Part shown: piece after piece, positions 684-56,594 of the stretch
Numbering within the stretch: the first letter of the stretch is position 1
How the letters are laid out: each line of letters starts with the position of its first letter
IMG/VR virus record: IMGVR_UViG_3300050821_009413
Location: 81,490 to 145,489 of that record
DNA length: 64,000 nucleotides
Source of the DNA: a virus
Taxonomy: Duplodnaviria > Heunggongvirae > Uroviricota > Caudoviricetes
Reading direction: 5' to 3' (one strand)
Notes under the pieces: model-generated
What the model saw: the letters and a program-made list of their open reading frames with translations, nothing else
The model's database searches: none
Told to the model about the DNA's origin: nothing
Program-made: the position numbers and the translations under genes

Positions 684-767
684 TGGTACCCGTGGTGGGA
701 TTCGAACCCACATGGCTGTTGCCGACCGGACTTAAATCGGTTGCGTATGCCGTTCCGCCACACGGGC
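684..767 (-). tRNA. tRNA with long variable arm (anticodon tentatively UAA, Leu-like)
   Basis: Minus-strand reading gives GCCCGTG...GGGTTCGAATCCC...CACGGGT-ACCA. It has a 7-bp acceptor stem, a canonical T-arm, an encoded CCA and an extra arm of about 84 nt. Folded by eye only. Confidence 0.55.
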
Positions 768-782
768 GTATCATGAACTTAG

Positions 783-832
783 GGAACGGCCATTAAGATG
801 GCGACACCCCAGGGCTGGACCGCCGTTCCCGC
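783..832. repeat. GC-hairpin repeat copy (opposite orientation to the others)
   Basis: GGGAACGGC...ATGGCGACACCCCAGGG...GCCGTTCCC is an inverted repeat. On the other strand the loop reads GGGGTGTCGCC. Confidence 0.5.
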
Positions 833-837
833 TAACG

Positions 838-911
838 TACCCGGCGGGAGATTCGAACTCCCAACCACCACCTTTTGAGGATGGTCGCTCTGCCTGTTGG
901 CGCACCCGGGC
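838..911 (-). tRNA. tRNA-like element (imperfect acceptor stem; possibly degenerate)
   Basis: A canonical GGGAG-TTCGAAT-CTCCC T-arm and an anticodon-arm-like hairpin are present. The acceptor stem shows two or more mismatches in my manual fold. Confidence 0.35.
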
Positions 912-912
912 G

Positions 913-986
913 TACTCCGAGCGAGAGTCGAACTCGCAGACACCAGCACCTCGAGCTGACGGCTTTGCCTGTTTGCCTATCGGAGC
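913..986 (-). tRNA. tRNA (isotype uncertain)
   Basis: Acceptor GCTCCGA/TCGGAGT with a G1-U72 wobble, T-arm GCGAG-TTCGACT-CTCGC, about 74 nt with no encoded CCA. The D-arm GGCAAACAGGCAAAGCC is shared with the next tRNA. Confidence 0.5.
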
Positions 987-987
987 G

Positions 988-1063
988 TACCTCGCCCGAG
1001 AGTCGAACTCGGAAACATCAGAATCTGAATCTGACGGCTTTGCCATGGTTTGCCTAGCGAGGC
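988..1063 (-). tRNA. tRNA (anticodon tentatively CAG)
   Basis: Acceptor GCCTCGC/GCGAGGT, anticodon stem TCAGA/TCTGA with loop TTCAGAT, T-arm CCGAG-TTCGACT-CTCGG. Only 1 nt separates it from the previous tRNA. Confidence 0.5.
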
Positions 1064-2038
1064 TTGTTGCGGAAGGTAGAGGTGTCGATCCCCCGGGATG
1101 ATTACCGCTTGGATGCTTTCAAGGCAACCTGGCTGGCCGCAGCCGTACCTTCCATCGCGGAAGGTGGAGGTCTTGATCCCCATCACACTTTCGTGGACGC
1201 TGGCATTAGCAGTACCGCCCGAACACCCGATCGGTTCACCTTCCCTGACTATGTAAGTCGGGAGGTACTCGATCGTAAGAATAGGTGCAATCGTTGGGCG
1301 GTCATGCCTATATGATACGGCAGTGACGTACCCGAACACAACTACTGTCTATCTGTCGTCTTCGTCTACTATCGTGACGGTTCCGTCTGGCATCGGTACG
1401 TTTTACTTGGCTAGCAGCGGGACCGGTGTCGCCATGGTGTATCTGCTGAGTCAGGGGCATTCGGTTATGCCGGGCGGTGTGTTGACAGCTACAGTTACGG
1501 GATTCCAATGAGCGCCCCGGGCGGCGGGTACGCCAAAGTGTCGACTACCTGGGTGGGTGGTGGTGCCTCCGGTGGGGTGGTGTCCATCCAGGTTCCGGCT
1601 GCGCAGCTGGGAAGCGGCCCGGGGAGTTGGTGCCTGAGTCCGGTAACCGTAACCGTTTCAAGGTTGCCGGGAGGCATATTGACGTTGTCGGCGTGCTCCC
1701 GGGAGCCTATATGAAGGCACGGTTGTTCGGCGGGCCGCGTAATGGTAAAGAGATCGATTACGCCGGCGACTCCACTGATTATGCCCACCCAGAGATCCTG
1801 TCGACCGGGGCTGGGTGGGACCAGATATTGAGGTGGCACACCTATGTGCCGATCAATAGGTTGCCGTTGCTGGCGCATGATTGCCGAGGCGGCTGCCCAT
1901 ACCCGGATGTTCCCGGTCACACGTTGGCGGTGGATAACGACTGCGACCCTCCGGTGCACGTGGTTGAGTATGCGTTGCGTAGTTGGGTGCGCAGGACGAT
2001 GGGCGGAGGCTTTATGGCTGCGTATGCGTGGTGCGCGA

Positions 2039-8781: not shown

Positions 8782-9260
8782 TGTTCGACGCTCTACACCG
8801 CGCCTACAAAGCATTCACATCAGGTGTCGTTCCAGCACACGACGTGACCGAGTCGCATCGATACACCGTCCATTACCCGGACCACCAGCCGAGACAGTCG
8901 GATCCACACTATAAGGATTTCGAGGCGTACCGGCGACGCACTAAGGCGACCGCAAAATGCTCAGTCGGTGAAGCGCGAGGGGACTTCACCGACTGCCAAC
9001 CCGGCCCCAACTCCTGGCCCACCGGCCTCGAACTACACCATGACCACGTCGAATTCGCCCTAGAAAATGCTGTAGACCTGGCGTTATTAGACAAGGTTTA
9101 CCCCGGTGTGTCGAACCCTGACGAGGTCGGAGCGTGGGTAGAGTCCGCTGACAACCTCGTATGGCTCTGCACGTTCCATCACCGCGGCCACGGCGGCGTA
9201 CATGTAGCAAGCAGCTCTGATTACGAGGCGGAACGCTTCATTAAGGGGCTGATCAGCTGA
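8781..9260 (+). CDS. HNH endonuclease
   Basis: LHHDHVEFALENAVDL...NLVWLCTFHHRGHGGVH is an HNH/His-Me finger. Its start overlaps the upstream stop (ATGA) and its stop overlaps the lysA start. Confidence 0.7.
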   Translation: MFDALHRAYKAFTSGVVPAHDVTESHRYTVHYPDHQPRQSDPHYKDFEAYRRRTKATAKCSVGEARGDFTDCQPGPNSWPTGLELHHDHVEFALENAVDLALLDKVYPGVSNPDEVGAWVESADNLVWLCTFHHRGHGGVHVASSSDYEAERFIKGLIS

Positions 9261-26573: not shown

Positions 26574-26885
26574 TTAACTCTCCTTATTTTCGGGATTTGT
26601 AATTCCTCCCCCGGCCCCGCCCAAAACATTTCCGTTACCAGCAGCGTTGGCGGCGGCCTCTTCTTTGGCGTTGAGTCTGGCAATCATTCCGTCGCGGCTG
26701 TATCGCACGCTGACGTAGGCATATTCCGGTACTTCCACGATCTCGATGCCGGGCAGCGACAACAGCACATCGGCAACCCGGTCGACCCAGCGATCCATGA
26801 GATCGTCTTGACTTGCCGTCGTGGGACTGGGGGCCTCTTTTCGCAAAACTTCGGCGAGGCGTGCGCGAAGGTCGGTCATGCCCAT
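26574..26885 (-). CDS. small paralog-family protein (MGMTDLRARLAE start)
   Basis: First of three tandem paralogs. Confidence 0.45.
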   Translation of the reverse strand: MGMTDLRARLAEVLRKEAPSPTTASQDDLMDRWVDRVADVLLSLPGIEIVEVPEYAYVSVRYSRDGMIARLNAKEEAAANAAGNGNVLGGAGGGITNPENKES

Positions 26886-36646: not shown

Positions 36647-36678
36647 CAGAACTCCTTAAGGTTGATCGTTGATCATTT

Positions 36679-36713
36679 GGGTGGACGGCGGGGACGCGCC
36701 TCGCCGTCCACCC
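36679..36713. repeat. GC-hairpin repeat copy (short loop)
   Basis: GGGTGGACGGCGG-ggacgcgcctcg-CCGTCCACCC. Confidence 0.4.
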
Positions 36714-36722
36714 AAGACCGAC

Positions 36723-37652
36723 TTAGTGCTGCCCGCCCTGGGGGACCACATAGGTTGGCTGATACGGGTTGAGGCCCTGCTTCACCGCCAACGCTTTTAG
36801 ATACGCGTCGATACTGCCGTACCCGTTGATCTCAGCCTGCTGCTGCAACGCTTTCTGCTGCGCCAGCTTCGTTTGAGCTTCAGCAGCGGCAACCTCAGCA
36901 TCCGCCTTCGCCCTGTCGGCGTTAGCTTCAGCGACGCCCTGGGCTTGCAAAGCCTGCGCACGCTGCACAGCAGCCTGCTGCGCCTCGATGGCGTTCTTCA
37001 AGTCGGGATTAACCGGAGTCGGCTTCAGCACAGTCACCTGGAAGTTCGAGAAGTACTCTGTGCCGTTGGTGCGGGCCTTAGACGCCAGCGGCAGCTGCTT
37101 GTCGATCTCCGTACGGAACTCGGTGCGAACCTCCTCGCTGTTCCAGATCTCCTGCCACGGATACTTCTGAGCCACACCGTTGAGCGTGTCCTGGAGAGGC
37201 TGGCCGATGACGTGATTGATGAGCGCTTTCCATCCGTCGCTCTCAGAGCCGTCGTCGTTGAGCGTCCCGTTGTATCCGGCGGCGAACTCTGAATAAAACT
37301 TCTTCAGCTTGTCGCAGTCCTGGGTCAGATCGAACGTCACCGACACTGGAACATCCATCTCCGCCGGGGCTTTAGCTGATGCGACAACCACGTACGGTCC
37401 CCTGTTGGGTTTCGCGTTGGGGTCGTTGCTGGCGTTCCACGCGATCTGGCGTGCGGGGAACTTGAACACCTCGTTGAAAGCTTCGTTCTTCGTCTCCGAA
37501 GGTTTGATGCACTCGGTGAGATTATGGTCGGCACCGGGGAACATCGACCCGTTCTGGACCACGGCCTGCTCAGCTGGACCCATGGCGTGATACGCGCATC
37601 CTGACAGACTGATCGCCGCGGCTGCGGCGATCGTCACTATCTTGGTTTTCAT
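36723..37652 (-). CDS. lipoprotein with Ala/Gln-rich coiled-coil C-terminus
   Basis: LSGC is a lipobox after an N-terminal signal sequence. The C-terminal AIEAQQAAVQRAQALQAQGVAEANADRAKADAEVAAAEAQ is coiled-coil-like (SPFH-like tail). Confidence 0.5.
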   Translation of the reverse strand: MKTKIVTIAAAAAISLSGCAYHAMGPAEQAVVQNGSMFPGADHNLTECIKPSETKNEAFNEVFKFPARQIAWNASNDPNAKPNRGPYVVVASAKAPAEMDVPVSVTFDLTQDCDKLKKFYSEFAAGYNGTLNDDGSESDGWKALINHVIGQPLQDTLNGVAQKYPWQEIWNSEEVRTEFRTEIDKQLPLASKARTNGTEYFSNFQVTVLKPTPVNPDLKNAIEAQQAAVQRAQALQAQGVAEANADRAKADAEVAAAEAQTKLAQQKALQQQAEINGYGSIDAYLKALAVKQGLNPYQPTYVVPQGGQH

Positions 37653-37972
37653 TTACTCTCTTTCGATTGAGGGGTAATCGTCCCCGGGTTGAGGATCGAC
37701 TGGGTGGTTCTCTCGATCAACTTCTCTGTGTATTCGTCGTCTTCGCGACGCAGCAACTTACGGGCGTGAGCGCGACGCTCACTCCTTGATAGCCACAGCT
37801 CCGGCTCATGTAAACCAGCTATACGGCGCTTGAGTCTGAAACGATCCACTGTCGCGTAGATCGTCCAGGAAATCCAGAGCACGACAACGATCATTAGTAC
37901 GAGACGGATCATCAGAACTCCTTGAGGTTGTTGATCATGTAGGTGAACACTGGTTGATGCGCGGTGGCGCAC
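37649..37972 (-). CDS. small membrane protein
   Basis: 107 aa with an N-terminal TM helix and an Arg-rich tail. Confidence 0.35.
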   Translation of the reverse strand: MRHRASTSVHLHDQQPQGVLMIRLVLMIVVVLWISWTIYATVDRFRLKRRIAGLHEPELWLSRSERRAHARKLLRREDDEYTEKLIERTTQSILNPGTITPQSKESK

Positions 37973-38769
37973 CCGACGCGGTTATGTCCAGGGTGTGTAT
38001 CGGTGGTGTAGATGTATCGGTAGTGGTCGCGGAGGTTCGGTGCGTTGCCGGAGAAAATGCCGTGCGTGATCCACAAGCCGAGTTGTTCTTTCGGCAGTCC
38101 GGTGGCTTGGGCGAGTCCCATGAATGTGCCGCCGCCGTCGCAAATGTCGTCCACTACTAGGTATTTTCCGGATTTGGGTAGTTTGTCGACCATTTTGATT
38201 CCGTTGATGCGTCCGGTTTCTTCGTCGCGGTCTTTGTCTGCCCGGTACATGTCGACGCCGAGGGCGGTCGCGGTTGTGGCTGCTCGTTCGACTGCGCCTT
38301 TGTCCGGCGCGATCACGGCGTGGTAGCCGTCGTAGCCGGCGCTGTTTTTTAGCGCTCGCTGCACCAGCGGAACTGGTGACAACTCGGTCAGCTTCCGTAG
38401 GTGGCGGTGAACGATCGGGCTGTGCGCATCAATCCCGATGACTTGTTGCGGGTTCATGGAGTTGATCAGTTGGGAGTAGGTGGCCACCCCGACGGGCTGC
38501 CCGGCCATCGGTCGGTCCGACCTGGCTGCCGGCAGGTACGGCAGGAACAGCATGAACGGTGCCTGCCGTTGGTGTGCCACGTCGGCGAACAACGCTGCCT
38601 GCACCAGGTCGTCGGCGGATCGGAACCGCACATCAGCGATCCACACCGCCGCGGGGTCGCGCACATCAGCCAGGTTGCGTAGGTGCCACTCGCCGCCCGG
38701 ATACTGAAACGGCTCCGCAGCACCATGAATGTAGTCGCCCGGAAGTTTCACCGAAAAATGTGTGGTCAC
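37912..38769 (-). CDS. ribose-phosphate pyrophosphokinase (Prs/PRPP synthetase) family protein; alternatively an Adps-type ADP-ribose pyrophosphate synthetase
   Basis: LPYLPAARSDR parallels Prs IPYFGYARQDR. VIAPDKGAVERA parallels VVSPDIGGVVRA. The PRPP-binding LVVDDICDGGGT parallels VLVDDMIDTGGT. ITHGIFSGNA parallels ATHPIFSGNA. Confidence 0.8.
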   Translation of the reverse strand: MTTHFSVKLPGDYIHGAAEPFQYPGGEWHLRNLADVRDPAAVWIADVRFRSADDLVQAALFADVAHQRQAPFMLFLPYLPAARSDRPMAGQPVGVATYSQLINSMNPQQVIGIDAHSPIVHRHLRKLTELSPVPLVQRALKNSAGYDGYHAVIAPDKGAVERAATTATALGVDMYRADKDRDEETGRINGIKMVDKLPKSGKYLVVDDICDGGGTFMGLAQATGLPKEQLGLWITHGIFSGNAPNLRDHYRYIYTTDTHPGHNRVGCATAHQPVFTYMINNLKEF

Positions 38770-39164
38770 AGCAGCATCAGCTCCCCGGTTATAGGATCGA
38801 GCGCCTCATCTGTATCGGGTCCGATGGCGCAGCACGTGATTGTTGGAACCCCGTTGAATTCGGTGAGTCCGGAGTCGGTGACCAGGAACTCGATCAGGCC
38901 AGCGTCTTTGGCGGCCTGATGAATGGCCAGTAGCTTCTCTTCGCTGTCCGCGCGGACACAGATCTTCTTGAAAGGGCCAGCTAGCCACTCTTCGATCTTG
39001 CGTTCATGGTCGCGGCGAATCTGGTCGTAAGGATCGGAGATCTCGGTGAGATACGGCAGCACCGCACCCAGCGACGCGTGTGCGGCCTGGGCGCACATTT
39101 TTCCTTTACGCATGCCAAGGTCGCTCCGCATCACAATGATTTGCTTAATATCTTCACCCCTCAT
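38766..39164 (-). CDS. peptidyl-tRNA hydrolase, PTH2 family (start uncertain)
   Basis: IVMRSDLGMRKGKMCAQAAHASLGA parallels the PTH2 motif VVRTDLKMGKGKIAAQCSHAALG. The core is about 125 aa. Confidence 0.65.
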   Translation of the reverse strand: MRGEDIKQIIVMRSDLGMRKGKMCAQAAHASLGAVLPYLTEISDPYDQIRRDHERKIEEWLAGPFKKICVRADSEEKLLAIHQAAKDAGLIEFLVTDSGLTEFNGVPTITCCAIGPDTDEALDPITGELMLL

Positions 39165-39360
39165 TCCAAAAGTCTTTACGGTTCGCGAGTCTTCGTGCCC
39201 GTTCTTTGCATGACTCAACCTCGTATGGTTCCATTCCTTCGGCGATCTGTTCGGCCATGTCCGCGGCTTCTGCCGCCGCCTGGTCATCGGGGGCGACGAT
39301 CCCCAAATACAACGCAAGGGTTAGGGCGTCGTGTTGTGCATCGTTGACTGGTTCATTCAT
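39154..39360 (-). CDS. hypothetical acidic small protein
   Basis: 68 aa. Confidence 0.3.
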   Translation of the reverse strand: MNEPVNDAQHDALTLALYLGIVAPDDQAAAEAADMAEQIAEGMEPYEVESCKERARRLANRKDFWNEG

Positions 39361-39436: not shown

Positions 39437-39889
39437 TCATTTAATGTCCTCCCCGACCGACAGTAGCCGCAGCACCGGCAGGTGCCGCAGATGAGCGGTG
39501 ATGTGCGGGAGGTGGCGCATAAGGTGAGCGAACCTCGCTATCCGCAGGATCCGCAGCGCGGTCAGGTTCTCGCCCAACGGCAGCGCGGCCAGGCCGACGA
39601 TCAGGATGTCGGCGACGAGCCAGAAATCGCTCCACCCGCGCCATCCGCCCCAACCCGTTTTGATTCGGGACCAGATTTTGATGGTAACTTCAGCGACGAA
39701 GAACCACACGATCGTGGTGTCGATCATCTCGAGAATGTCATCATGCTTGAACTCTAGCCATGCTGCGACGAGGAAGTTGATGAGGATAGCGGCGATGACG
39801 ACGCGGTTGAACCAGCTGTGGTGTTTGGTGGTGACAGCTGCGTCGTGGGTGGTCAAGGTTACTCCTGTCTGTTCCAGTGTTTGTGCCAT
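39437..39889 (-). CDS. voltage-sensor domain (S1-S4) only membrane protein, Ion_trans-like without pore domain
   Basis: There are four TM helices. S2 FFVAEVTIKIW matches the F-x-x-E-x-x-x-K motif. S3 carries WSDFWLVADILIV. S4 LRILRIARFAHLMRHL has Arg at every third position. Confidence 0.6.
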   Translation of the reverse strand: MAQTLEQTGVTLTTHDAAVTTKHHSWFNRVVIAAILINFLVAAWLEFKHDDILEMIDTTIVWFFVAEVTIKIWSRIKTGWGGWRGWSDFWLVADILIVGLAALPLGENLTALRILRIARFAHLMRHLPHITAHLRHLPVLRLLSVGEDIK

Positions 39890-40069
39890 CCCATAATTAT
39901 ATCACACCGGGCTGGCACCCTATGGTGGGTGAGGGCAACTCTTTGGCGGAAACCAGGATTGGAAAATCCTCCCCCGACTCCCACCAAAACATTGCCGTTA
40001 CTCAACGTTTACAACCGGAGTGGCGACAAATATTTGGAGATCATTCATGGTCTGGCCGCTCCGGAAGTC

Positions 40070-40327
40070 TCAATGCCCCAACAAATACGCCGCCAAAACG
40101 CCGTCAGTATAAATAAACAGGCCGGCAGTAACCATAAGAAAATATTGCCTAGTCGTGATGTTCCCGTCAGCACCGGGCTGGGTAAGTCCAACGGTTCGCG
40201 CGACCCACACCACACTTCCGATGATGACCAGCGCCGACACCATCAACCAAGCACCGTTCATTCTTCCCACTCGCCTTCGTGTACGGTGCGGCCACCGAGC
40301 GGCAACGACCGCCCGGTGAGTATCCAC
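40070..40327 (-). CDS. small membrane protein
   Basis: 85 aa with two hydrophobic helices. Confidence 0.3.
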   Translation of the reverse strand: MDTHRAVVAARWPHRTRRRVGRMNGAWLMVSALVIIGSVVWVARTVGLTQPGADGNITTRQYFLMVTAGLFIYTDGVLAAYLLGH

Positions 40328-40478
40328 ACAGTGTGTTCCCGCAGATCGCAGCGAACCGCGTTGTCTTCAACGGTGAAGTGTTCGGGCGGGTCAGCCAAGA
40401 ATTCGTCCGAGAAGTAAAGGCGTCGGCATTCAGTGAATGGCCTGCCTTCTTGGTCTTCTGGCCTGTAGATGCCGATGC

Positions 40479-40712
40479 TCACAGTGCCGATTTGTGGTAG
40501 TCGAACATTTGGGACCAGACAGCATATTCTTCGGATACGGCGAGACTCACGGTGCGCAGTGCGCCCAGCAGATCTCGTAGTACTTCGTCGGCGTCCGCGT
40601 CGGCGGCTTCTTTTACCGCGGCTTCGAGGTTGCCTCGGGCCATCTCTAGGTTCCTGTTAGCGTCCAGCAGGTGGCCTCTCATCGCGAGGGCTTGGTTGAT
40701 GTCGTCGCTCAT
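40479..40712 (-). CDS. hypothetical small helical protein
   Basis: 77 aa. Confidence 0.35.
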   Translation of the reverse strand: MSDDINQALAMRGHLLDANRNLEMARGNLEAAVKEAADADADEVLRDLLGALRTVSLAVSEEYAVWSQMFDYHKSAL

Positions 40713-40778
40713 GCTTTTTGTCCTTTCGTTTTCGGTTTTTGGTTTCCTCCCCCGGCCCCACCCAAAACATTACCGTTA

Positions 40779-41018
40779 CTAGATTTCCTGTTCGCGCACG
40801 TAACGGTACATAACCGTAGCTGCACGATCCGATATGTCGACACCTCTGACGAACAGGAAGTCCTCAAGGCTGTCCATATTGACGGCGCGACCCGCTAGGC
40901 CCACGTAATCCAGGTATTCGTCCCACAGGTCATCCAATTGACCCTGCTGGTACTCATGAAAGCTGTCCCCGCCGATCTCGATCATTAGTCGCCCCAGTCG
41001 AAGATGCGGCCAACCCAC
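40779..41018 (-). CDS. hypothetical small protein
   Basis: 79 aa, acidic. Confidence 0.35.
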   Translation of the reverse strand: MGWPHLRLGRLMIEIGGDSFHEYQQGQLDDLWDEYLDYVGLAGRAVNMDSLEDFLFVRGVDISDRAATVMYRYVREQEI

Positions 41019-46410: not shown

Positions 46411-47328
46411 CTACGCCGATCGGGCGCGGCGACGCGGAACCGCAACAGTAACCGCGGTTTCAGCTGCAGGCTTCCTGCCCTTAGCCGGGTGCTTACGCTT
46501 ACTGGAAGCCTTACCGGCGACCATTTCTGCCGTCTTCTCCAGCTTCGCCAGCAGATCGCCCACCTCTTCGGCGGCTGCGGCTTCCTCACGTGGGGTCATC
46601 GGAACGCCGGTCACTTTCGACTCGATCAGTTCCTCAACCCTCGCCGCGTAGGTGTCGACGTGCGCGTCTTCCTCGAAGGAGGCGGTCATGTCGTCCACGA
46701 TGCCGCCCAGGATCTTCACGTACTGCCTACTTGGTGTGACTTCGCGCCGTAACGACTCGAAATCGGCGTTACGCAGATCTTCTGGCCACATCAAGTTCTG
46801 CACGACCAGCACTTTGTTGCCGCGGACCGTTTCGGGCCGCAAAGCCGCTAAGTGTGTTTTGCTGCGCAGCGTATACTGGATGATCCCGGATTTGCCTTTC
46901 TCTTCCAGCACGGCCAGCAGTGTGGCGTACGCTTCCTCGGTCTGCCGGGGGCTGGGGCTGGACAGGTCAGGCTCGAGAAAGTAGCTCTTCTCTGAGAACA
47001 GAGGGTTGATGAGAGCGGTTTCAACGAAATGCTGCACGTCGAGGGTTCTGCCGCAATCCACCTGAACCTGCTCCAGCTCCTCATCTGTCAGCAGGATCGT
47101 TTCGCCGTCGCGTACCACGCCGCGGGTGGTTTCGCCTCGGCAGCTTGCTCCGCAGTCCTCGCAGATGTACGGGGCTTTGATCCGTGACTGGGTGCCGTCG
47201 TCGTGGACGTGGAAACTGTTGAATTCCACGCCCCGGTCGCCGGATGTTGCGTACATTTTGACTGGGCAGCTGACCAGTCCGAGGCTGATCGCGGTGTTCG
47301 CTATCGAACGTGTTGGTGTTGGTGCCAT
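46411..47328 (-). CDS. ku: Ku-like DNA end-binding protein
   Basis: The N-terminus NTAISLGLVSCPVKMYATSGDRGVEFNSFH is a typical bacterial Ku core, about 300 aa, with a basic Lys/Arg C-terminal tail. Confidence 0.8.
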   Translation of the reverse strand: MAPTPTRSIANTAISLGLVSCPVKMYATSGDRGVEFNSFHVHDDGTQSRIKAPYICEDCGASCRGETTRGVVRDGETILLTDEELEQVQVDCGRTLDVQHFVETALINPLFSEKSYFLEPDLSSPSPRQTEEAYATLLAVLEEKGKSGIIQYTLRSKTHLAALRPETVRGNKVLVVQNLMWPEDLRNADFESLRREVTPSRQYVKILGGIVDDMTASFEEDAHVDTYAARVEELIESKVTGVPMTPREEAAAAEEVGDLLAKLEKTAEMVAGKASSKRKHPAKGRKPAAETAVTVAVPRRRARSA

Positions 47329-47601: not shown

Positions 47602-48096
47602 TCATCGCAGTGTGGTCCCCGGCCCAGGCCTGACGCCGCAAGCACGCACCTTGCCGTCCGTCCCCATATGCACATGAGACGCGGACGTTACCGGCGCATG
47701 CTGGTATGTTCCCGCCGGCGCATCGCAGAAAAACACCGAAAACTGCGGCACCTGGTACGGGTTGTACCAGATGAGCGCGTCCAGCCCGGTCGGGTTCGCG
47801 ATCCAATCATGGTCGGGTGCTAGTTCGCCGATGATCCATGCGTGGACGTTTTTGCGCCGTTCACGCAGGACACGTTGCCTGCCGTTCTCGCTCACCACGA
47901 ACCTGGCGTTATACAAGGCGATGCTGTCGGCGTGCGCGATCACCTTACCCGCGTCCGGACCGTACACAGCCGTGATCGACCAACACTCAGGGGAGCTGAT
48001 CTTACGGTGCACTTTCACAAAATCCACCATTGAACGACCGCGGAAAGGCCGCACGTTCAGTGACCGCGACGTATCCACATCAGAGGTATCCATCAT
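47602..48096 (-). CDS. hypothetical protein
   Basis: 164 aa. Confidence 0.4.
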   Translation of the reverse strand: MMDTSDVDTSRSLNVRPFRGRSMVDFVKVHRKISSPECWSITAVYGPDAGKVIAHADSIALYNARFVVSENGRQRVLRERRKNVHAWIIGELAPDHDWIANPTGLDALIWYNPYQVPQFSVFFCDAPAGTYQHAPVTSASHVHMGTDGKVRACGVRPGPGTTLR

Positions 48097-51424: not shown

Positions 51425-52825
51425 TTAGCCGAGCGTTACCCAGTTCGTGGCCCCAGCGGCAGTGAGTCGCTCGCGTTCACCGTTGCCGTCCACGATGTAG
51501 TAGTAGTTGCCAGCCAAGTTGAACCGAATCTCGTCCGAACGGCGGCGGCGGGGCCGAGGCTCCGGCGGGGACCACCTGTTCAGCGGCTCCTTCTTACCGG
51601 TCAACAACTGCGGAGGCGCGAGCCGCATAATCTCGGTGTACAAGTGCTTGTAGTTACGCCGTTGCACCCAGTCAGTGAAATGCCGCCACGTCAACGCGTT
51701 GCGGCGCAACACGTCAGCGGTCGTCATGTTCTCGGTGTAGCGCACCGACGCGTCAGCGAACTCCAACGCCGCCATGAACTCCGGGTACTTAAGTGTGGCT
51801 TTGAAGAACCGCAACTCGAACGTCCGTTCGTTGTTGCAGTTCACCGCAACATAACGGGAGTCGTTGTAGCGGTCACCAACATCGGTGGCTTTGCGCTTCA
51901 ACTCACCAGACACCGGTTTGCGGAACGCCGCGTAGCGTTCCGAGGTGCGCCGCGCCAACAGTTCCAACTCCCGGGCGTGCCGGTACATGAACAGCAGCCA
52001 CAGCATTTGATGCGACTTCGACTGCTTCCCGTCGTGGATGAACGCGTTGCGGGAAACGTGGACATGCAAACCGTAATGGTCGTCCACCCGGCAACGGACA
52101 CGGCGCAGCGAGGCCAGCAGTTCCTCGAACGGGTACTGGCGGGCGAACTGCAACGTCATCGGATGCGTCACAATCTCGGCACCGGAGATGGACCCGTCTT
52201 CCTTGAGGTAGAGGTGGGTCTCGTCGGCGTCAACGGTGCGTGTTGTTTCGGCGATGATCTGGCCGCGGCGTCCGCCGACTTCCAGTTCGACGCCGAGCAG
52301 CGCTTCAGCCGGGTAGTTCCCTTTCGGTTTGAAGTGCCGCGGTCGGTAGTTCCATGCGTGGATACCATAGTTGCCTGCCGCGTAGGCGCGGTCACGCCGA
52401 CTTGAACTGTCGGCGCAAGGCCCGCACGTGGCGCAGTTGTAGGTGTCGCATTCCTCGCAGTGAGTGCATTCGTCGCGGTTGTACGCGCCGCCGCAATTGT
52501 GGCAGATCACTTCAGGGCGTCGTGGCACAGTGCGTCTCCTTTCTTCTGTTCGTAAGCGCGTTCCCAGCAGTATTGCTGCCGCGTTGGTGAGACGGTTAGG
52601 GGTACTTATGACCGCCGCAGTTTCATCTGCCAGTGCAGATGTCCAGCACGTGCATTCGATGCTTGCTTCGCCGCAGTCGTTGCAGGTGTTACAGTTGTTG
52701 CAGTAGCCTGCGGGGATAATCTCGCCCATCCCGCAGTACGCGCAGCAATTAGCATCTGCCACCGGCTCCCACGGCCAGCCCCAGATGCTTCTGCTTGAGC
52801 GCGGCGTTATCCCTATCTCTGGCAT
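51425..52825 (-). CDS. amidoligase (glutamine-synthetase/GCS2-like, Amidoligase_2-type) with N-terminal Cys-rich zinc module
   Basis: It shares HLYLKEDGSISGAEIVTHPMTLQFARQYPF...GLHVHVSRNAF...LWLLFMYRH...FELRFFKATL with two paralogs. The start was chosen at 52825 after an AAGGAG RBS. Confidence 0.6.
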   Translation of the reverse strand: MPEIGITPRSSRSIWGWPWEPVADANCCAYCGMGEIIPAGYCNNCNTCNDCGEASIECTCWTSALADETAAVISTPNRLTNAAAILLGTRLRTEERRRTVPRRPEVICHNCGGAYNRDECTHCEECDTYNCATCGPCADSSSRRDRAYAAGNYGIHAWNYRPRHFKPKGNYPAEALLGVELEVGGRRGQIIAETTRTVDADETHLYLKEDGSISGAEIVTHPMTLQFARQYPFEELLASLRRVRCRVDDHYGLHVHVSRNAFIHDGKQSKSHQMLWLLFMYRHARELELLARRTSERYAAFRKPVSGELKRKATDVGDRYNDSRYVAVNCNNERTFELRFFKATLKYPEFMAALEFADASVRYTENMTTADVLRRNALTWRHFTDWVQRRNYKHLYTEIMRLAPPQLLTGKKEPLNRWSPPEPRPRRRRSDEIRFNLAGNYYYIVDGNGERERLTAAGATNWVTLG

Positions 52826-53125
52826 AGCACTTAGTTTCTCCTTTCCCCTGGTCGGTCGGATCAATGTTGAACCGGGAGATTGTTCCTCCTGGAAGCGCCG
52901 GAACGAAGACGGACACAACACGTCGCACCGCTCTGACGCTTTCAGCAGGACCGGGCATTACTGCCCGGCCTCACCGGATCGCTTCAGTTACACAACGATC
53001 AGGAACACAGCTGCAACCATGACGACGACGATCGCCGCCAAGATTGACCAGCCGATAAGTTTCCCGAGTTGATCTATCGGGTTGTCAGTTCCCTGCGCCA
53101 TACCCGTTCTCCTTCCCTGTTGTTG

Positions 53126-54080: not shown

Positions 54081-55010
54081 TCAGGATTGTTTGAGGATTT
54101 CGCGGTAAAGGTGCGTGTAGTTGTGCTTGAGCACCCAATCGGTGAACTGGTCCCACCCCAGCGCGCGGCCCTTCAAAACGTCCACAGCTGACAGGTTGCT
54201 GGTGTATTTCACCGACGCGTCGGCGAACTCCAGAGCCGCATAAAATTCCTGCTCATCCAGTGTGGCTTTGAAGAAGCGAAGCTCAAACGTTTCCCGGTTC
54301 TGGCAGTTCACCGCCGTGTATCGGGGCGTGAGGTTCCTGTCGCCTTTCGCTTGTTCCTTCAGCACACCCTTGCGGGGTTTCCGGAACGACGCCCACTCTT
54401 GCGATGACCTGCGGGCCAGCTTTTCGAGTTGTTCACTGTTTCGGTACATGAACAGCAGCCACATCATTTGATGGGCATCGGATTGCTGTTTGTGCGTTCG
54501 GTAAGACTTTTTACGGAACGCGTCACGCGCCACATGAATATGCAGCCCATAGTTGTCGTACACGCTGGACCCTGAAAGTCTCAGGTTTTTCAGCAGTTTC
54601 GAGAACGGGTACTGCCGCGCGTATTCCAGCGTCATCGGGTGCGTAACGATCTCCACACCGCTGATGCTGCCGTCGTGCTTCATGTAGAGATGGTCTTCAT
54701 GGGCGTCCACCAGGTGCACCGCGTCGACTATCTGGTCGGCCAACCCGTAGACTTCCAGCTCCACACCCATCATCGTTTGAGCTGTATCGCCCTTAAATAG
54801 CAGGTGTGGCCGGTAGTCGTAACTGTGGACGGAGCCATGTTCGGCGTCCGAGCAGCAGCAGCAGCTTTCGCAGTGCCCGTTGTCGCACATACCGAAGCCT
54901 TCTACCCAGCCCCTGCAGTCTTCGCAGTGCAGTCTGCCGCAGTCGGCGCAGCGTTGCATGTAATCGCGGGTGTCTTCGTAACCGCAGACCCGGCACTGTA
55001 CCATCGGCAT
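54081..55010 (-). CDS. amidoligase paralog with N-terminal Cys-rich region
   Basis: HLYMKHDGSISGVEIVTHPMTLEYARQYPF...GLHIHVARDAFRK...MWLLFMYRNSEQLEKLARR...FELRFFKATL. Confidence 0.6.
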   Translation of the reverse strand: MPMVQCRVCGYEDTRDYMQRCADCGRLHCEDCRGWVEGFGMCDNGHCESCCCCSDAEHGSVHSYDYRPHLLFKGDTAQTMMGVELEVYGLADQIVDAVHLVDAHEDHLYMKHDGSISGVEIVTHPMTLEYARQYPFSKLLKNLRLSGSSVYDNYGLHIHVARDAFRKKSYRTHKQQSDAHQMMWLLFMYRNSEQLEKLARRSSQEWASFRKPRKGVLKEQAKGDRNLTPRYTAVNCQNRETFELRFFKATLDEQEFYAALEFADASVKYTSNLSAVDVLKGRALGWDQFTDWVLKHNYTHLYREILKQS

Positions 55011-55159: not shown

Positions 55160-56271
55160 CTAGTCATCGACGCAGCGTTTCAGGATTTCCGCGTGCAACA
55201 TCGGGTAGTCGTTGTCCGCGGCCCACTGAGTGAACACATCCCACGACAACGCCGCGCCCTTCAACACATCCGCAGACGACAGGTTGCGGGTGTATTTCAC
55301 CGACGCGTCGGCGAACTCCAGCGCCGCATAAAACTGCGACTTCCACAACGTCGACTTGAAGAACCGCAACTCGAACGTGTTCGAGTTCAAGCAGTTAACC
55401 GCAACATACCGTTCGCGGCCACGGTCACCTTTCGCCTTGTTCTTCAACTCGCCCGGCGCTGGTTTGCGGAACGATCCCCAACTGTCCGACACCCGCCGCG
55501 CCAACTTTTCTAGCTGCGTACTGTTTCGGTACATGAACAGCAGCCACAACATTTGATGCACATCGGACTCCTGCTTACGTCCGCGGCGCGCACCATTCTT
55601 GCGGAACGCGTCACGCGCCACATGGATATGCAGCCCATACCCGGACGACACCCGGCACCCGGCGCTACGCAAACCAGCCAGCATCGGCTGGAACGGGTAC
55701 TGCCGCGCGTATTCCAGCGTCATCGGGTGCGTCACAATCTCCACACCAGAAATGGAGCCGTCCTCTTTCATGTAGAGGTGGTCCTCGCTGGGATCGATGC
55801 TGTGAACCACGGGCACGATGCTGCTTTGGTTGCCGCCCACTTCCAGCTCGACGCCCATCATCGTTTGGGACCGGTCGCCTTTGAACACCAGTTCCGGACG
55901 GTAGCTGGCGTAACGGATAGCGCCGCGCTCGTCGTAATAGTCGCTGTCGTCTTCGCAACAATCGCAGCAGTCGCTGCAGTGATACTCGTCGCATCCGCTC
56001 ATCCCACAGCAGTAATACTCGCAGCAGGAGTCGCAGTACGACAGGTCGTCACGCCAGCCGCGGTGCCCACAGTTCTGGCAGTCGGCCCGCTCATCGTCAC
56101 ACGATTCGCAGTACCCGTCGCCGCTGATACCGCAGAGGCTACGGTTGTGGCAGACGCTGTCGCCGCAACTGTGGCAGCTCACCAACTCGTCAGGGTCAAC
56201 ATATTCGAGGCACGTTTGGCAGCGTTCTAGCAGCACTTCTTCTTCGTCGTCCGCCAAAACAATAGGCATAG
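55160..56271 (-). CDS. amidoligase paralog with extremely Cys-rich N-terminal region
   Basis: The same conserved core is present. The N-terminal 120 aa hold about 35 Cys. The start was chosen at 56271 after an AAGGAA RBS. Confidence 0.6.
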
Positions 56272-56303
56272 GGGTTCCTTTCATTTTGTTCCGGAAATAT
56301 GGC

Positions 56304-56318
56304 GTTGCATCTTGCAAC
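56304..56318. promoter_or_regulatory. GTTGCA-N3-TGCAAC palindrome 33 bp upstream of amidoligase 55160-56271
   Basis: gttgcatcttgcaac. Confidence 0.4.
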
Positions 56319-56594
56319 GCGGTGCCGCGTCCCGAGCGACACCACCGGCAGGCACCAGAGAACACCTGATGCCGCCGAGTTGTGCTCGGAAAACGGGGGT
56401 TAGCCGGCGGCCAGCAGGCCGTTATCGGACGCGTCGTCCACCATCACATCGAAGAACAGGTCATCGTCGGGATACGTCATCTCAGCCCAACCGAGGAAGG
56501 GGATGACTTCGAGGTTCTCCCGTTCAACGGCAGCGTTAATACCAACACGTGTGTTCGCCATGTTTTGTTGCCTTTCCAGTGTTTTGTCGATTCT

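Follow-up and report, generated by a model that had tools for sequence, protein, structure and literature searches.

A stretch of viral DNA of 64,000 nt (Caudoviricetes; IMG/VR record IMGVR_UViG_3300050821_009413, positions 81,490 to 145,489) was analysed over its whole length and is called the window below. One of its open reading frames (ORFs) encodes a 150-aa protein that is composed of the four transmembrane (TM) helices S1-S4 of a voltage-sensor domain (VSD) and a short, His/Arg-rich cytoplasmic tail. The initial annotation had placed this ORF at 39437-39889 without giving its strand. It was confirmed from ATG to stop codon on the minus strand, and all motifs quoted for it were found, namely FFVAEVTIKI (aa 63-72), WSDFWLVAD (aa 86-94) and LRILRIARFAHLMRHL (aa 112-127). 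The gene is present in a single copy in the window, as judged with a hidden Markov model (HMM) of the family described below (E 2e-40 at the ORF). The coordinates of the gene, of its structural elements and of other features are compiled in Table 1.

The Pfam family PF00520 (Ion_trans) matched the ORF with an E-value of 1.8e-10 and 40.9 bits at a gathering cutoff of 25, a likeness far beyond chance. The match joined aa 24-131 to positions 1-116 of the 241 profile positions, i.e. to the S1-S4 half only. No domain besides Ion_trans was found in the protein by the Pfam search, and no PTEN-like phosphatase. In a single-sequence phmmer search of the PDB, the voltage sensors of the bacterial sodium channels (BacNaV) NavMs, NavAb, NavRh and NaChBac were matched; with the family profile, the best single-domain matches were NavMs (5e-22), NavRh (9e-18) and NaChBac (2e-14). 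An AlphaFold2 model based on a 36-sequence alignment contained four long helices and a short C-terminal helix, and its best fold matches in the PDB were VSD-bearing channels, at a moderate model confidence (predicted local distance difference test 68.5, predicted template-modelling score 0.43). The charge distribution fits an N-in/C-in orientation and the positive-inside rule, with three Lys/Arg and no Asp/Glu in the S2-S3 loop and with acidic outer loops. The PADLOC and NCBIfam libraries gave no meaningful match; the sole match in PHROG was phrog_7872, a family of unknown function (E 0.01), and no lysis family was matched. The significant similarity to Ion_trans and the membrane-embedded helices support the four-TM S1-S4 sensor that had been proposed initially, and the outcome named there as a refutation, a non-membrane protein without likeness to Ion_trans, did not occur.

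Pore sequences were sought with a channel HMM built from 61 full-length single-domain channels (279 positions). In the window, this HMM matched only at the VSD ORF and only with HMM positions 19-127; in a second stretch, aa 133-146 matched the S4 part again (HMM positions 111-124). No ORF of at least 40 aa resembling the pore half was detected in any frame of the window, and the same result was obtained with the channel HMM for ten homolog-bearing loci. The VSD ORF itself stops 24 residues past S4, and the absence of a pore domain noted in the initial annotation was thus confirmed. A split or separate pore gene was ruled out by the channel-HMM scan of the window. The two-TM ORF upstream of the VSD gene (40070-40260) was rejected as a pore candidate, as it has neither a selectivity-filter-like loop nor a family match nor a counterpart in other loci. 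On sequence grounds, the gene product is a standalone S1-S4 voltage-sensor domain that is derived from a bacterial NaV-type sensor and lacks the pore module; its identity as a member of a VSD-only phage family is regarded as nearly certain.

A word-indexed search for homologs returned one match, a 96%-identical metagenomic protein (P0001), whose identical N-terminus supports the start codon. An exhaustive phmmer search of 1.84 billion representatives returned 235 matches. The best of these after the 96%-identical homolog were proteins of 99-184 aa that aligned end to end at 40-48% identity; full-length channels ranked lower. The complete VSD-only proteins of short length that were recognised amount to about 88 cluster representatives (30-48% identity), which keep the length class, the stop just after S4, all sensor residues and the family-specific residues. 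In a nearest-neighbour check, 82 of 91 short sequences were each other's nearest neighbours. Labelled members originated without exception from Mycobacterium/Actinomycetota prophage-like islands, from actinophage-like metagenome contigs or from two IMG/VR viral contigs (101 and 196 kb). Relatives carried the automatic labels 'hypothetical protein', 'voltage-gated sodium channel', 'ion transport protein' or 'ion transporter'. These data show that the family is conserved and that its carriers are actinophages and prophage-like elements of mycobacteria. C-terminal modules added to the VSD core vary among members (P0013, P0038, P0113, P0154, P0057): Cys-rich CxxC...CC tails occur in P0013 and P0038, whereas the VSD core is followed by a further TM helix in P0113, with HHNG(D/G)PVV repeats, and in P0154, with a Cys-rich segment. 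In P0009 the S4/His motif is duplicated.

Comparison of the VSD protein, P0153 and P0005 with 50,697 phage records by tblastn gave no match, with the caveat of the BLAST low-complexity filter. No structural counterpart was present in the BFVD viral structure library, and a search of IMG/VR for relatives with the single protein returned none. These results are in keeping with the earlier remark that no characterised phage example was at hand. A degenerate DNA pattern for GRHLPHLRH had two matches in IMG/VR, both spurious. With a second DNA pattern (S4 plus His ladder), at least 120 matches were obtained in GTDB genomes, nearly all of them due to chance; among the matches listed, only L041 (same contig as L009) and L101, a locus of a Mycobacterium metagenome-assembled genome (MAG), remained after HMM filtering. 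In IMG/VR, two of the three matches to this pattern were genuine. The genome pattern scan was noisy, and the taxonomic distribution of the family is to be read as a sample and not as a census.

All collected sequences were aligned to the family HMM and classified by length (up to 200, 201-330, and more than 330 aa). Residues N38, F64, E67, K/R71, W90, D94, R113, R116 and R119 were common to all length classes. Among ungapped short-family domains, N38 was kept in 75 of 83, and F64 and E67 each in 88 of 90; in the 36-sequence alignment, F64, W90 and D94 were invariant and E67 was at least 90% conserved. As shown by the alignment, every residue needed for voltage sensing is kept, i.e. the gating charges R1-R3, the hydrophobic gasket F2.50 and the internal acidic cluster E2.53/D3.50.

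The length classes differ at position 122, which was His in 85 of 90 ungapped short sequences and Arg/Lys in 73 of 77 single-domain and 107 of 107 multi-domain channel sequences (180 of 184 full-length channel domains pooled). Further differences were found behind it: position 126 was His in 82 short sequences, Val/Ala in single-domain and varied in multi-domain channels; position 129 was His in 69 short sequences, Gln/Ser in single-domain and varied in multi-domain channels; and position 125 was Arg/Lys in 88 short sequences, Ser in single-domain channels and Arg/Lys in most multi-domain channels. The eight short sequences without H122 were cut before or at that position, incomplete or divergent; several of them (P0122, P0149, P0117 and P0140) were judged by eye to resemble fragments of ordinary channels. 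Three longer sequences with H122 turned out to be VSD cores with unrelated C-terminal extensions. On a helical wheel, H122, H126, H129, H133 and H136 fall inside an 80-degree arc, and the predicted histidine stripe starts at the fourth gating charge and reaches the end of S4 on the cytoplasmic side. By comparison of the aligned sequences, H122 is shown to be the family-diagnostic change (R4 to His). This family-wide histidine at the fourth gating charge, which the initial annotation had not mentioned, is the most informative feature of the protein.

Short VSD genes were located inside long contigs and were followed by unrelated genes, and therefore are not truncation artefacts. Two assemblies of Mycolicibacterium rhodesiae have, at the VSD locus, genes for a capsid protein and an integrase that abut argS. 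Other loci comprised small co-directional ORF arrays with WhiB, DUF732, Ku, Lsr2, SprT, L5 gp82, GP88, PE and DUF2510, and in an Actinomycetota MAG the VSD island adjoins GmrSD/HEPN and a type I CRISPR-Cas locus. Ku was encoded at most about 7 kb from the VSD gene in six loci, the window included, and a gp82-like protein in three. Ku/gp82 genes flank VSD homologs in unrelated contigs (L007, L009, L132, L133, L134), with Ku directly adjacent in L009. This recurrence suggests synteny of a conserved accessory region among Ku-encoding actinophages. No neighbouring gene was common to all 11 loci, by which an obligate partner gene was ruled out. In four loci, a small signal-anchored peptide with a His/Gly-rich tail (..GHAHA.TQAAS..RGGGHGGH) is encoded 0-1.8 kb upstream of the VSD gene (L007, 8624-8800; L009, ~8950-9188; L133, 8011-8193; L134, 5594-5794); no homolog of it was found in the window.

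GC and GC3 (third codon position) of the VSD gene agree with the neighbouring genes. The immediate 5' sequence of the gene is gTGaTATAATtatgggATG, without a Shine-Dalgarno sequence. Together with the putative extended -10 element (Table 1), this would be the arrangement of a leaderless mycobacterial-type mRNA; a scan for the two-hexamer consensus of sigma-70 gave no promoter upstream of the gene. About 180 nt of intergenic DNA, which include a 36-nt repeat, separate the VSD gene from the upstream genes. The repeat is 86% identical to a direct-repeat copy at 40745-40780, and a third copy is located at 26621-26639 or, over the length of the element, 26621-26656; these three matches in the window compare with 0.05 expected by chance. 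The approximately 36-nt element (GTAACGGnAATGTTTTGG..GGGGGAGGA) stands upstream of three minus-strand genes, with its sense on the minus strand. The copy next to the VSD gene probably marks a transcription-unit boundary, and the element may be a phage-specific promoter, operator or terminator motif. No family match was obtained for either member of the small-ORF pair upstream. The true start of the PTH2 gene is probably an internal Met near 39164, because the N-terminal extension overlaps a plausible acidic ORF. The minus strand also carries, downstream of the VSD gene (27709-38769), a complete Ter-type stress cluster and NAD-salvage genes. This Ter module of the phage may work together with the neighbouring voltage sensor as a single unit for membrane or ion stress, but none of the other VSD loci has Ter genes.

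The attribution of the window to a phage was upheld by genes for lysin A, a cutinase/PE-PPE-like lysin B, Ku, an L5 gp82-like protein, RtcB, NAMPT, PTH2 and DUF932, by the tRNA array, and by several genes of PHROG families known only from phages. Proteins of the window show distant kinship to mycobacteriophage proteins. Structural genes were not found within the 64 kb, and megablast of 4 kb around the VSD gene revealed no close genome among the 50,697 phage records. Three paralogous genes belong to PHROG 22302, the cluster-mates of which, in mycobacteriophage Marvin and relatives, were deposited as 'glutamine amidotransferase domain protein' (~49% identity).

Table 1. Features of the window, with details of the VSD gene (positions are those of the window; AF2, AlphaFold2).
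Feature	Position	Strand	Remarks
tRNA genes	684-1153	-	tight array of five: four tRNA-Leu (taa, caa, gag, cag), one tRNA-Ser (tga)
Lysin A	9260-10636	+	
Cutinase-like lysin B	11549-12595	+	
NAMPT	27709-29295	-	
TerD	29378-30013	-	
vWA-TerF-like	31257-32006	-	
TelA	32053-33393	-	
DUF475/TerC	33899-34987	-	
Rv2179c-like exoribonuclease	35091-35630	-	
SPFH/Band 7	36723-37652	-	
Phosphoribosyltransferase (PRTase)-like	37912-38769	-	
PTH2 (peptidyl-tRNA hydrolase) ORF	38766-39317	-	56-residue N-terminal extension if read from first TTG
Plausible 68-aa acidic ORF	39154-39360	-	overlapped by PTH2 extension
Gene for 150-aa VSD-only protein	39437-39889	-	ATG-to-stop ORF; S1-S4 and short His/Arg-rich cytoplasmic tail
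C-terminal amphipathic helix, aa 138-148	39446-39478	-	AF2; with R135 and H136 completes the cytoplasmic His/Arg-rich tail
S4 and continuation, aa 109-134	39488-39565	-	AF2; R113/R116/R119 (R1-R3), H122 (position 4), R125, then H126, H129, H133
Codon CAC for H122	39524-39526	-	fourth gating-charge position, 4.56
S3 helix, aa 85-102	39584-39637	-	AF2; W90, D94 (3.50)
S2 helix, aa 50-78	39656-39742	-	AF2; E54/D57; charge-transfer-centre F64 (2.50), E67 (2.53), K71
S1 helix, aa 22-45	39755-39826	-	AF2; N38 at position 1.51, aligned to Hv1 D112
Putative extended -10 element TGaTATAAT	39896-39904	-	ends 6 nt ahead of ATG; read by eye
36-nt conserved intergenic repeat	39967-40002	-	between upstream small-ORF pair and VSD promoter region
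63-aa two-TM protein (MNGAWLMVSALVIIGSVVWVAR...YFLMVTAGLFIYTDGVLAAYLLGH)	40070-40260	-	directly upstream of VSD promoter region
74-aa soluble ORF	40258-40482	-	overlapping ATGA with the two-TM ORF; translationally coupled pair
Ku and L5 gp82-like genes	46411-47328 and 47602-48096	- (both)	
PHROG 22302 paralogs	51425-52921, 54081-55010, 55160-56365	- (all)	

According to a review of 2023 (PMC10377628), prokaryotic VSDs always come with a pore, and Hv channels do not occur in bacteria or archaea. No published report of a phage or prokaryotic pore-less VSD was found in the literature. Because of this statement of the review, the family is considered new, as a VSD-only family of phages that derives from BacNaV, has no earlier description and is marked by the diagnostic change of R4 to His. 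Already known are the domain itself, pore-less sensors in eukaryotes, and the viral pore-only channel Kcv (PMC12332018). Pore-less sensors (Hv1, VSP, TMEM266) have been held to be eukaryotic inventions, and the family shows that the sensor was freed from the pore in the bacterial virosphere as well. In generic numbering, position 4.47 corresponds to Hv1 R205 and Shaker R362 (PMC5065317), and 4.56 therefore to Hv1 N214 and Shaker R371. The family thus naturally bears the S4 histidine at 4.56 that was engineered in Shaker to obtain a proton pore; the authors of that Shaker work speculated on such proteins in nature (PMC2233663). With 110-150 residues, these bacterial-type proteins would be a tractable minimal system for VSD proton permeation and omega/gating-pore currents. 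For phage biology, the family points to a dedicated voltage sensor for sensing or manipulating the membrane potential of the host.

The preferred reading combines a pore-less phage VSD family with a voltage-dependent proton pathway based on H122 and a role in the collapse of the proton-motive force (PMF); it is proposed tentatively, with somewhat less than even confidence. While the host membrane rests at its strongly negative potential, S4 would be 'down', with H122 toward the cytoplasm. Partial depolarisation would move S4 outward, and H122 would enter the F64 gasket. There it would bridge the inner and outer water crevices and shuttle or conduct protons inward down the PMF, comparable to Shaker R371H, which is a depolarisation-activated proton pore; R365H and R368H are proton carriers (PMC2233663). 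The histidine stripe (i, i+4, i+7...) along the cytoplasmic S4 end would continue the proton pathway. The influx of protons would itself deepen the depolarisation, which would make the protein a regenerative amplifier of depolarisation. A phage or prophage might use it to commit the cell to PMF collapse, in superinfection exclusion or in abortive infection from a prophage, or alternatively for infection timing, with sharper late-infection membrane events. DNA entry of a superinfecting phage or early holin action could provide the triggering voltage drop. Depolarising or sensing of the host membrane, for lysis timing or for evasion of abortive infection, had been proposed as possible functions in the initial annotation. 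Proton conduction through H122, taken by itself, appears possible and rather doubtful. That the protein is a natural 'histidine-tagged voltage sensor' which works as a regenerative switch and converts a small voltage drop into complete PMF collapse is unlikely on present evidence, by a modest measure.

Several points weigh against a proton-conducting sensor. With Asn at the D112 position, an Hv1-like aqueous proton wire would not be expected, and only a His-shuttle would be plausible. The measurements on R371H come from a K+ channel with four subunits, and a BacNaV-type sensor on its own may behave differently. A shift of the S4 register by one turn between families is possible, and the moderate confidence of the AlphaFold2 model limits the placing of H122 relative to F64. 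Binding of metal or lipid, or sensing of pH, would be equally conceivable tasks for the histidines. Finally, no deposited phage genome among those searched has the gene, which would have allowed a phenotype to be borrowed, and no neighbour common to all loci constrains the biological role (defence, lysis or another).

Alternatively, the protein could be a non-conducting sensor whose post-S4 helix, the equivalent of the S4-S5 linker, signals in trans to a phage or host membrane protein, as in the VSP sensor or TMEM266; a host pore-only channel, a transporter or the downstream SPFH and TerC proteins are candidate partners. Family-specific conservation is highest in the post-S4 segment (R125, H126, H129, 'HLR'), which corresponds to the linker by which sensor and pore are coupled in channels. 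The C-terminal add-ons differ (P0013, P0038, P0113), as is expected of a sensor with variable outputs, although most members have no extension at all. Likewise, the VSD gene heads a co-directional array with SPFH, TerC/DUF475, TelA and TerD in the window, but these Ter/SPFH genes were found only there and no neighbour is conserved across the 11 loci. Functional co-assembly of the VSP sensor with the pore-only Kir2.1, reported in a preprint of 2026 (bioRxiv 10.64898/2026.08.07.743441), is also in favour of signalling through a partner. Such a function is nevertheless judged unlikely, and it leaves the His at the fourth gating charge in ~94% of members unexplained. Rather improbable is a sensor of metal or pH, in which the histidines at i, i+4 and i+7 would either coordinate a metal (Zn2+, Ni2+ or Cu) or be titrated by the pH of the cytoplasm; metal or pH stress would then be reported or buffered by the protein, or would gate it, and no protons would pass through H122. 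Histidines in the pattern HxxxHxxH along one side of a helix are a classic arrangement for metal binding, and Hv1 is regulated by Zn2+ via histidines. TMEM266 is Zn2+-regulated as well, according to the reference list of PMC13095418. However, H122 occupies a gating-charge position inside the membrane field and not a soluble loop, and a simple metal binder would have no need of the conserved R1-R3, F2.50, E2.53 and D3.50. The His/Gly-rich secreted peptide near the gene in four loci, the HHNG repeats of one member, and the downstream Ter cluster with its link to metal and tellurite stress would fit a metal-related function, but peptide and Ter genes are missing from most loci.

A role in lysis timing had been suggested in the initial annotation. 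Function as a holin, antiholin or pinholin-like factor triggered at a set membrane potential would suit a small multi-TM phage protein, and holins are known to trigger on depolarisation. The VSD gene, however, is located ~27 kb from the genes for lysin A and lysin B and on the opposite strand, its homologs are located in regions of early or accessory genes and in remnants of prophages that have no lysis genes, and no PHROG lysis family was matched; this function is therefore considered very unlikely. A decaying fragment of a captured bacterial sodium-channel gene, or a truncation by annotation or assembly, might be suspected from the label 'voltage-gated sodium channel' that pipelines assign to relatives and from the few short matches that truly are channel fragments. 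This explanation is effectively excluded by the ~88 representatives that keep length, stop position, sensor and family residues, by the position of the genes inside long contigs, by a composition that fits the phage, and by the lack of any pore remnant in any frame.

A dedicated sensor of the host membrane potential would give phages a new kind of means to exclude superinfecting phages, to abort infection or to time it in mycobacteria and related hosts, in which the membrane energetics of phage and host also bear on phage therapy. If the pore-less VSD does work as a depolarisation-activated proton pore and regenerative switch, prokaryotes and viruses would have their first example of a voltage-gated proton conductance, evolved independently of Hv1, and the protein would be a one-protein counterpart of RexAB-type abortive infection with the membrane voltage as trigger.

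Among known systems, the BacNaV sensors (NavMs, NavAb, NavRh, NaChBac) are the closest solved relatives of the phage VSD. They share the S1-S4 order, N1.51, F2.50, E2.53, the Lys/Arg that ends S2, the Trp and D3.50 of S3, and R1-R3. In contrast to these sensors, the phage protein has no S4-S5 linker connection to a pore and no S5-P-S6 pore, carries His for Arg at the fourth gating charge and R/H/H instead of S/V/Q at positions 125/126/129, and is encoded by phages or prophages rather than being a cellular channel.

The resemblance to Hv1 proposed in the initial annotation holds for the pore-less architecture and not for family membership. Human Hv1 (query sequence identical to PDB 5OQK) was aligned with the family profile by hhalign at a probability of 88.8% and an E-value of 2.5e-6, with the alignment ending at N214; neither Hv1 nor Ci-VSP was among the top 60 PDB profile matches. 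The equivalent residues were N38 and D112; F64/E67/K71 and F150/E153/K157; D94 and D174; R113/R116/R119 and R205/R208/R211; L115 and W207; and H122 and N214. In both proteins, three S4 arginines are followed by a residue other than Arg/Lys at 4.56, but this residue is Asn in Hv1 and His in the phage protein. Replacement of N214 of Hv1 by Arg or Lys blocks the proton pathway (PMC5065317). The phage protein differs from Hv1 by Asn at the position of the S1 selectivity-filter Asp (1.51) and by its S4, which reads R-I-L-R-I-A-R without the Trp of RxWRxxR. Because selectivity-filter Asp and S4 Trp are both absent, membership in the Hv1 family was excluded, and the nearest relatives are BacNaV sensors; the S4 Trp is absent from prokaryotic S1-S4 segments (PMC10377628). 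At the C-terminus, where Hv1 has its coiled coil, the phage protein has a 24-residue His/Arg tail with a predicted helix of 11 residues.

The engineered 'histidine-tagged voltage sensor' Shaker R371H (Starace & Bezanilla 2001) likewise has His at 4.56 and keeps R1-R3, but it is an artificial mutant of a tetrameric six-TM channel, whereas the phage VSD is natural, pore-less and provided with additional conserved histidines. TMEM266/HVRP1 and Ci-VSP are eukaryotic, and neither has His at R4; TMEM266 is cited in PMC13095418 as a non-conducting, Zn2+-regulated voltage sensor, and VSP carries a phosphatase effector. RexB of phage lambda, Sbash gp31 and CarolAnn gp43 are four-TM proteins that were proposed to be depolarisers activated by a RexA-like partner (PMC6426596, PMC6426606), and they provide a precedent for the proposed depolarisation by a phage protein. 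Like the VSD family, RexB-like proteins are four-TM membrane proteins of phages and prophages, with a proposed collapse of the membrane potential in abortive infection and with actinobacterial hosts (PMC6426596, PMC6426606). An S4 charge ladder is lacking in the RexB-like proteins, and neither tblastn of the phage collection nor PADLOC gave a sign of a sequence relationship. They require a RexA-like DUF4747 partner, which was not annotated in any VSD neighbourhood looked at. Kcv, finally, is also a virus-encoded minimal module of the voltage-gated channel superfamily (PMC12332018); it is the pore alone and comes from eukaryotic algal viruses, whereas the present protein is the sensor alone and comes from a bacteriophage.

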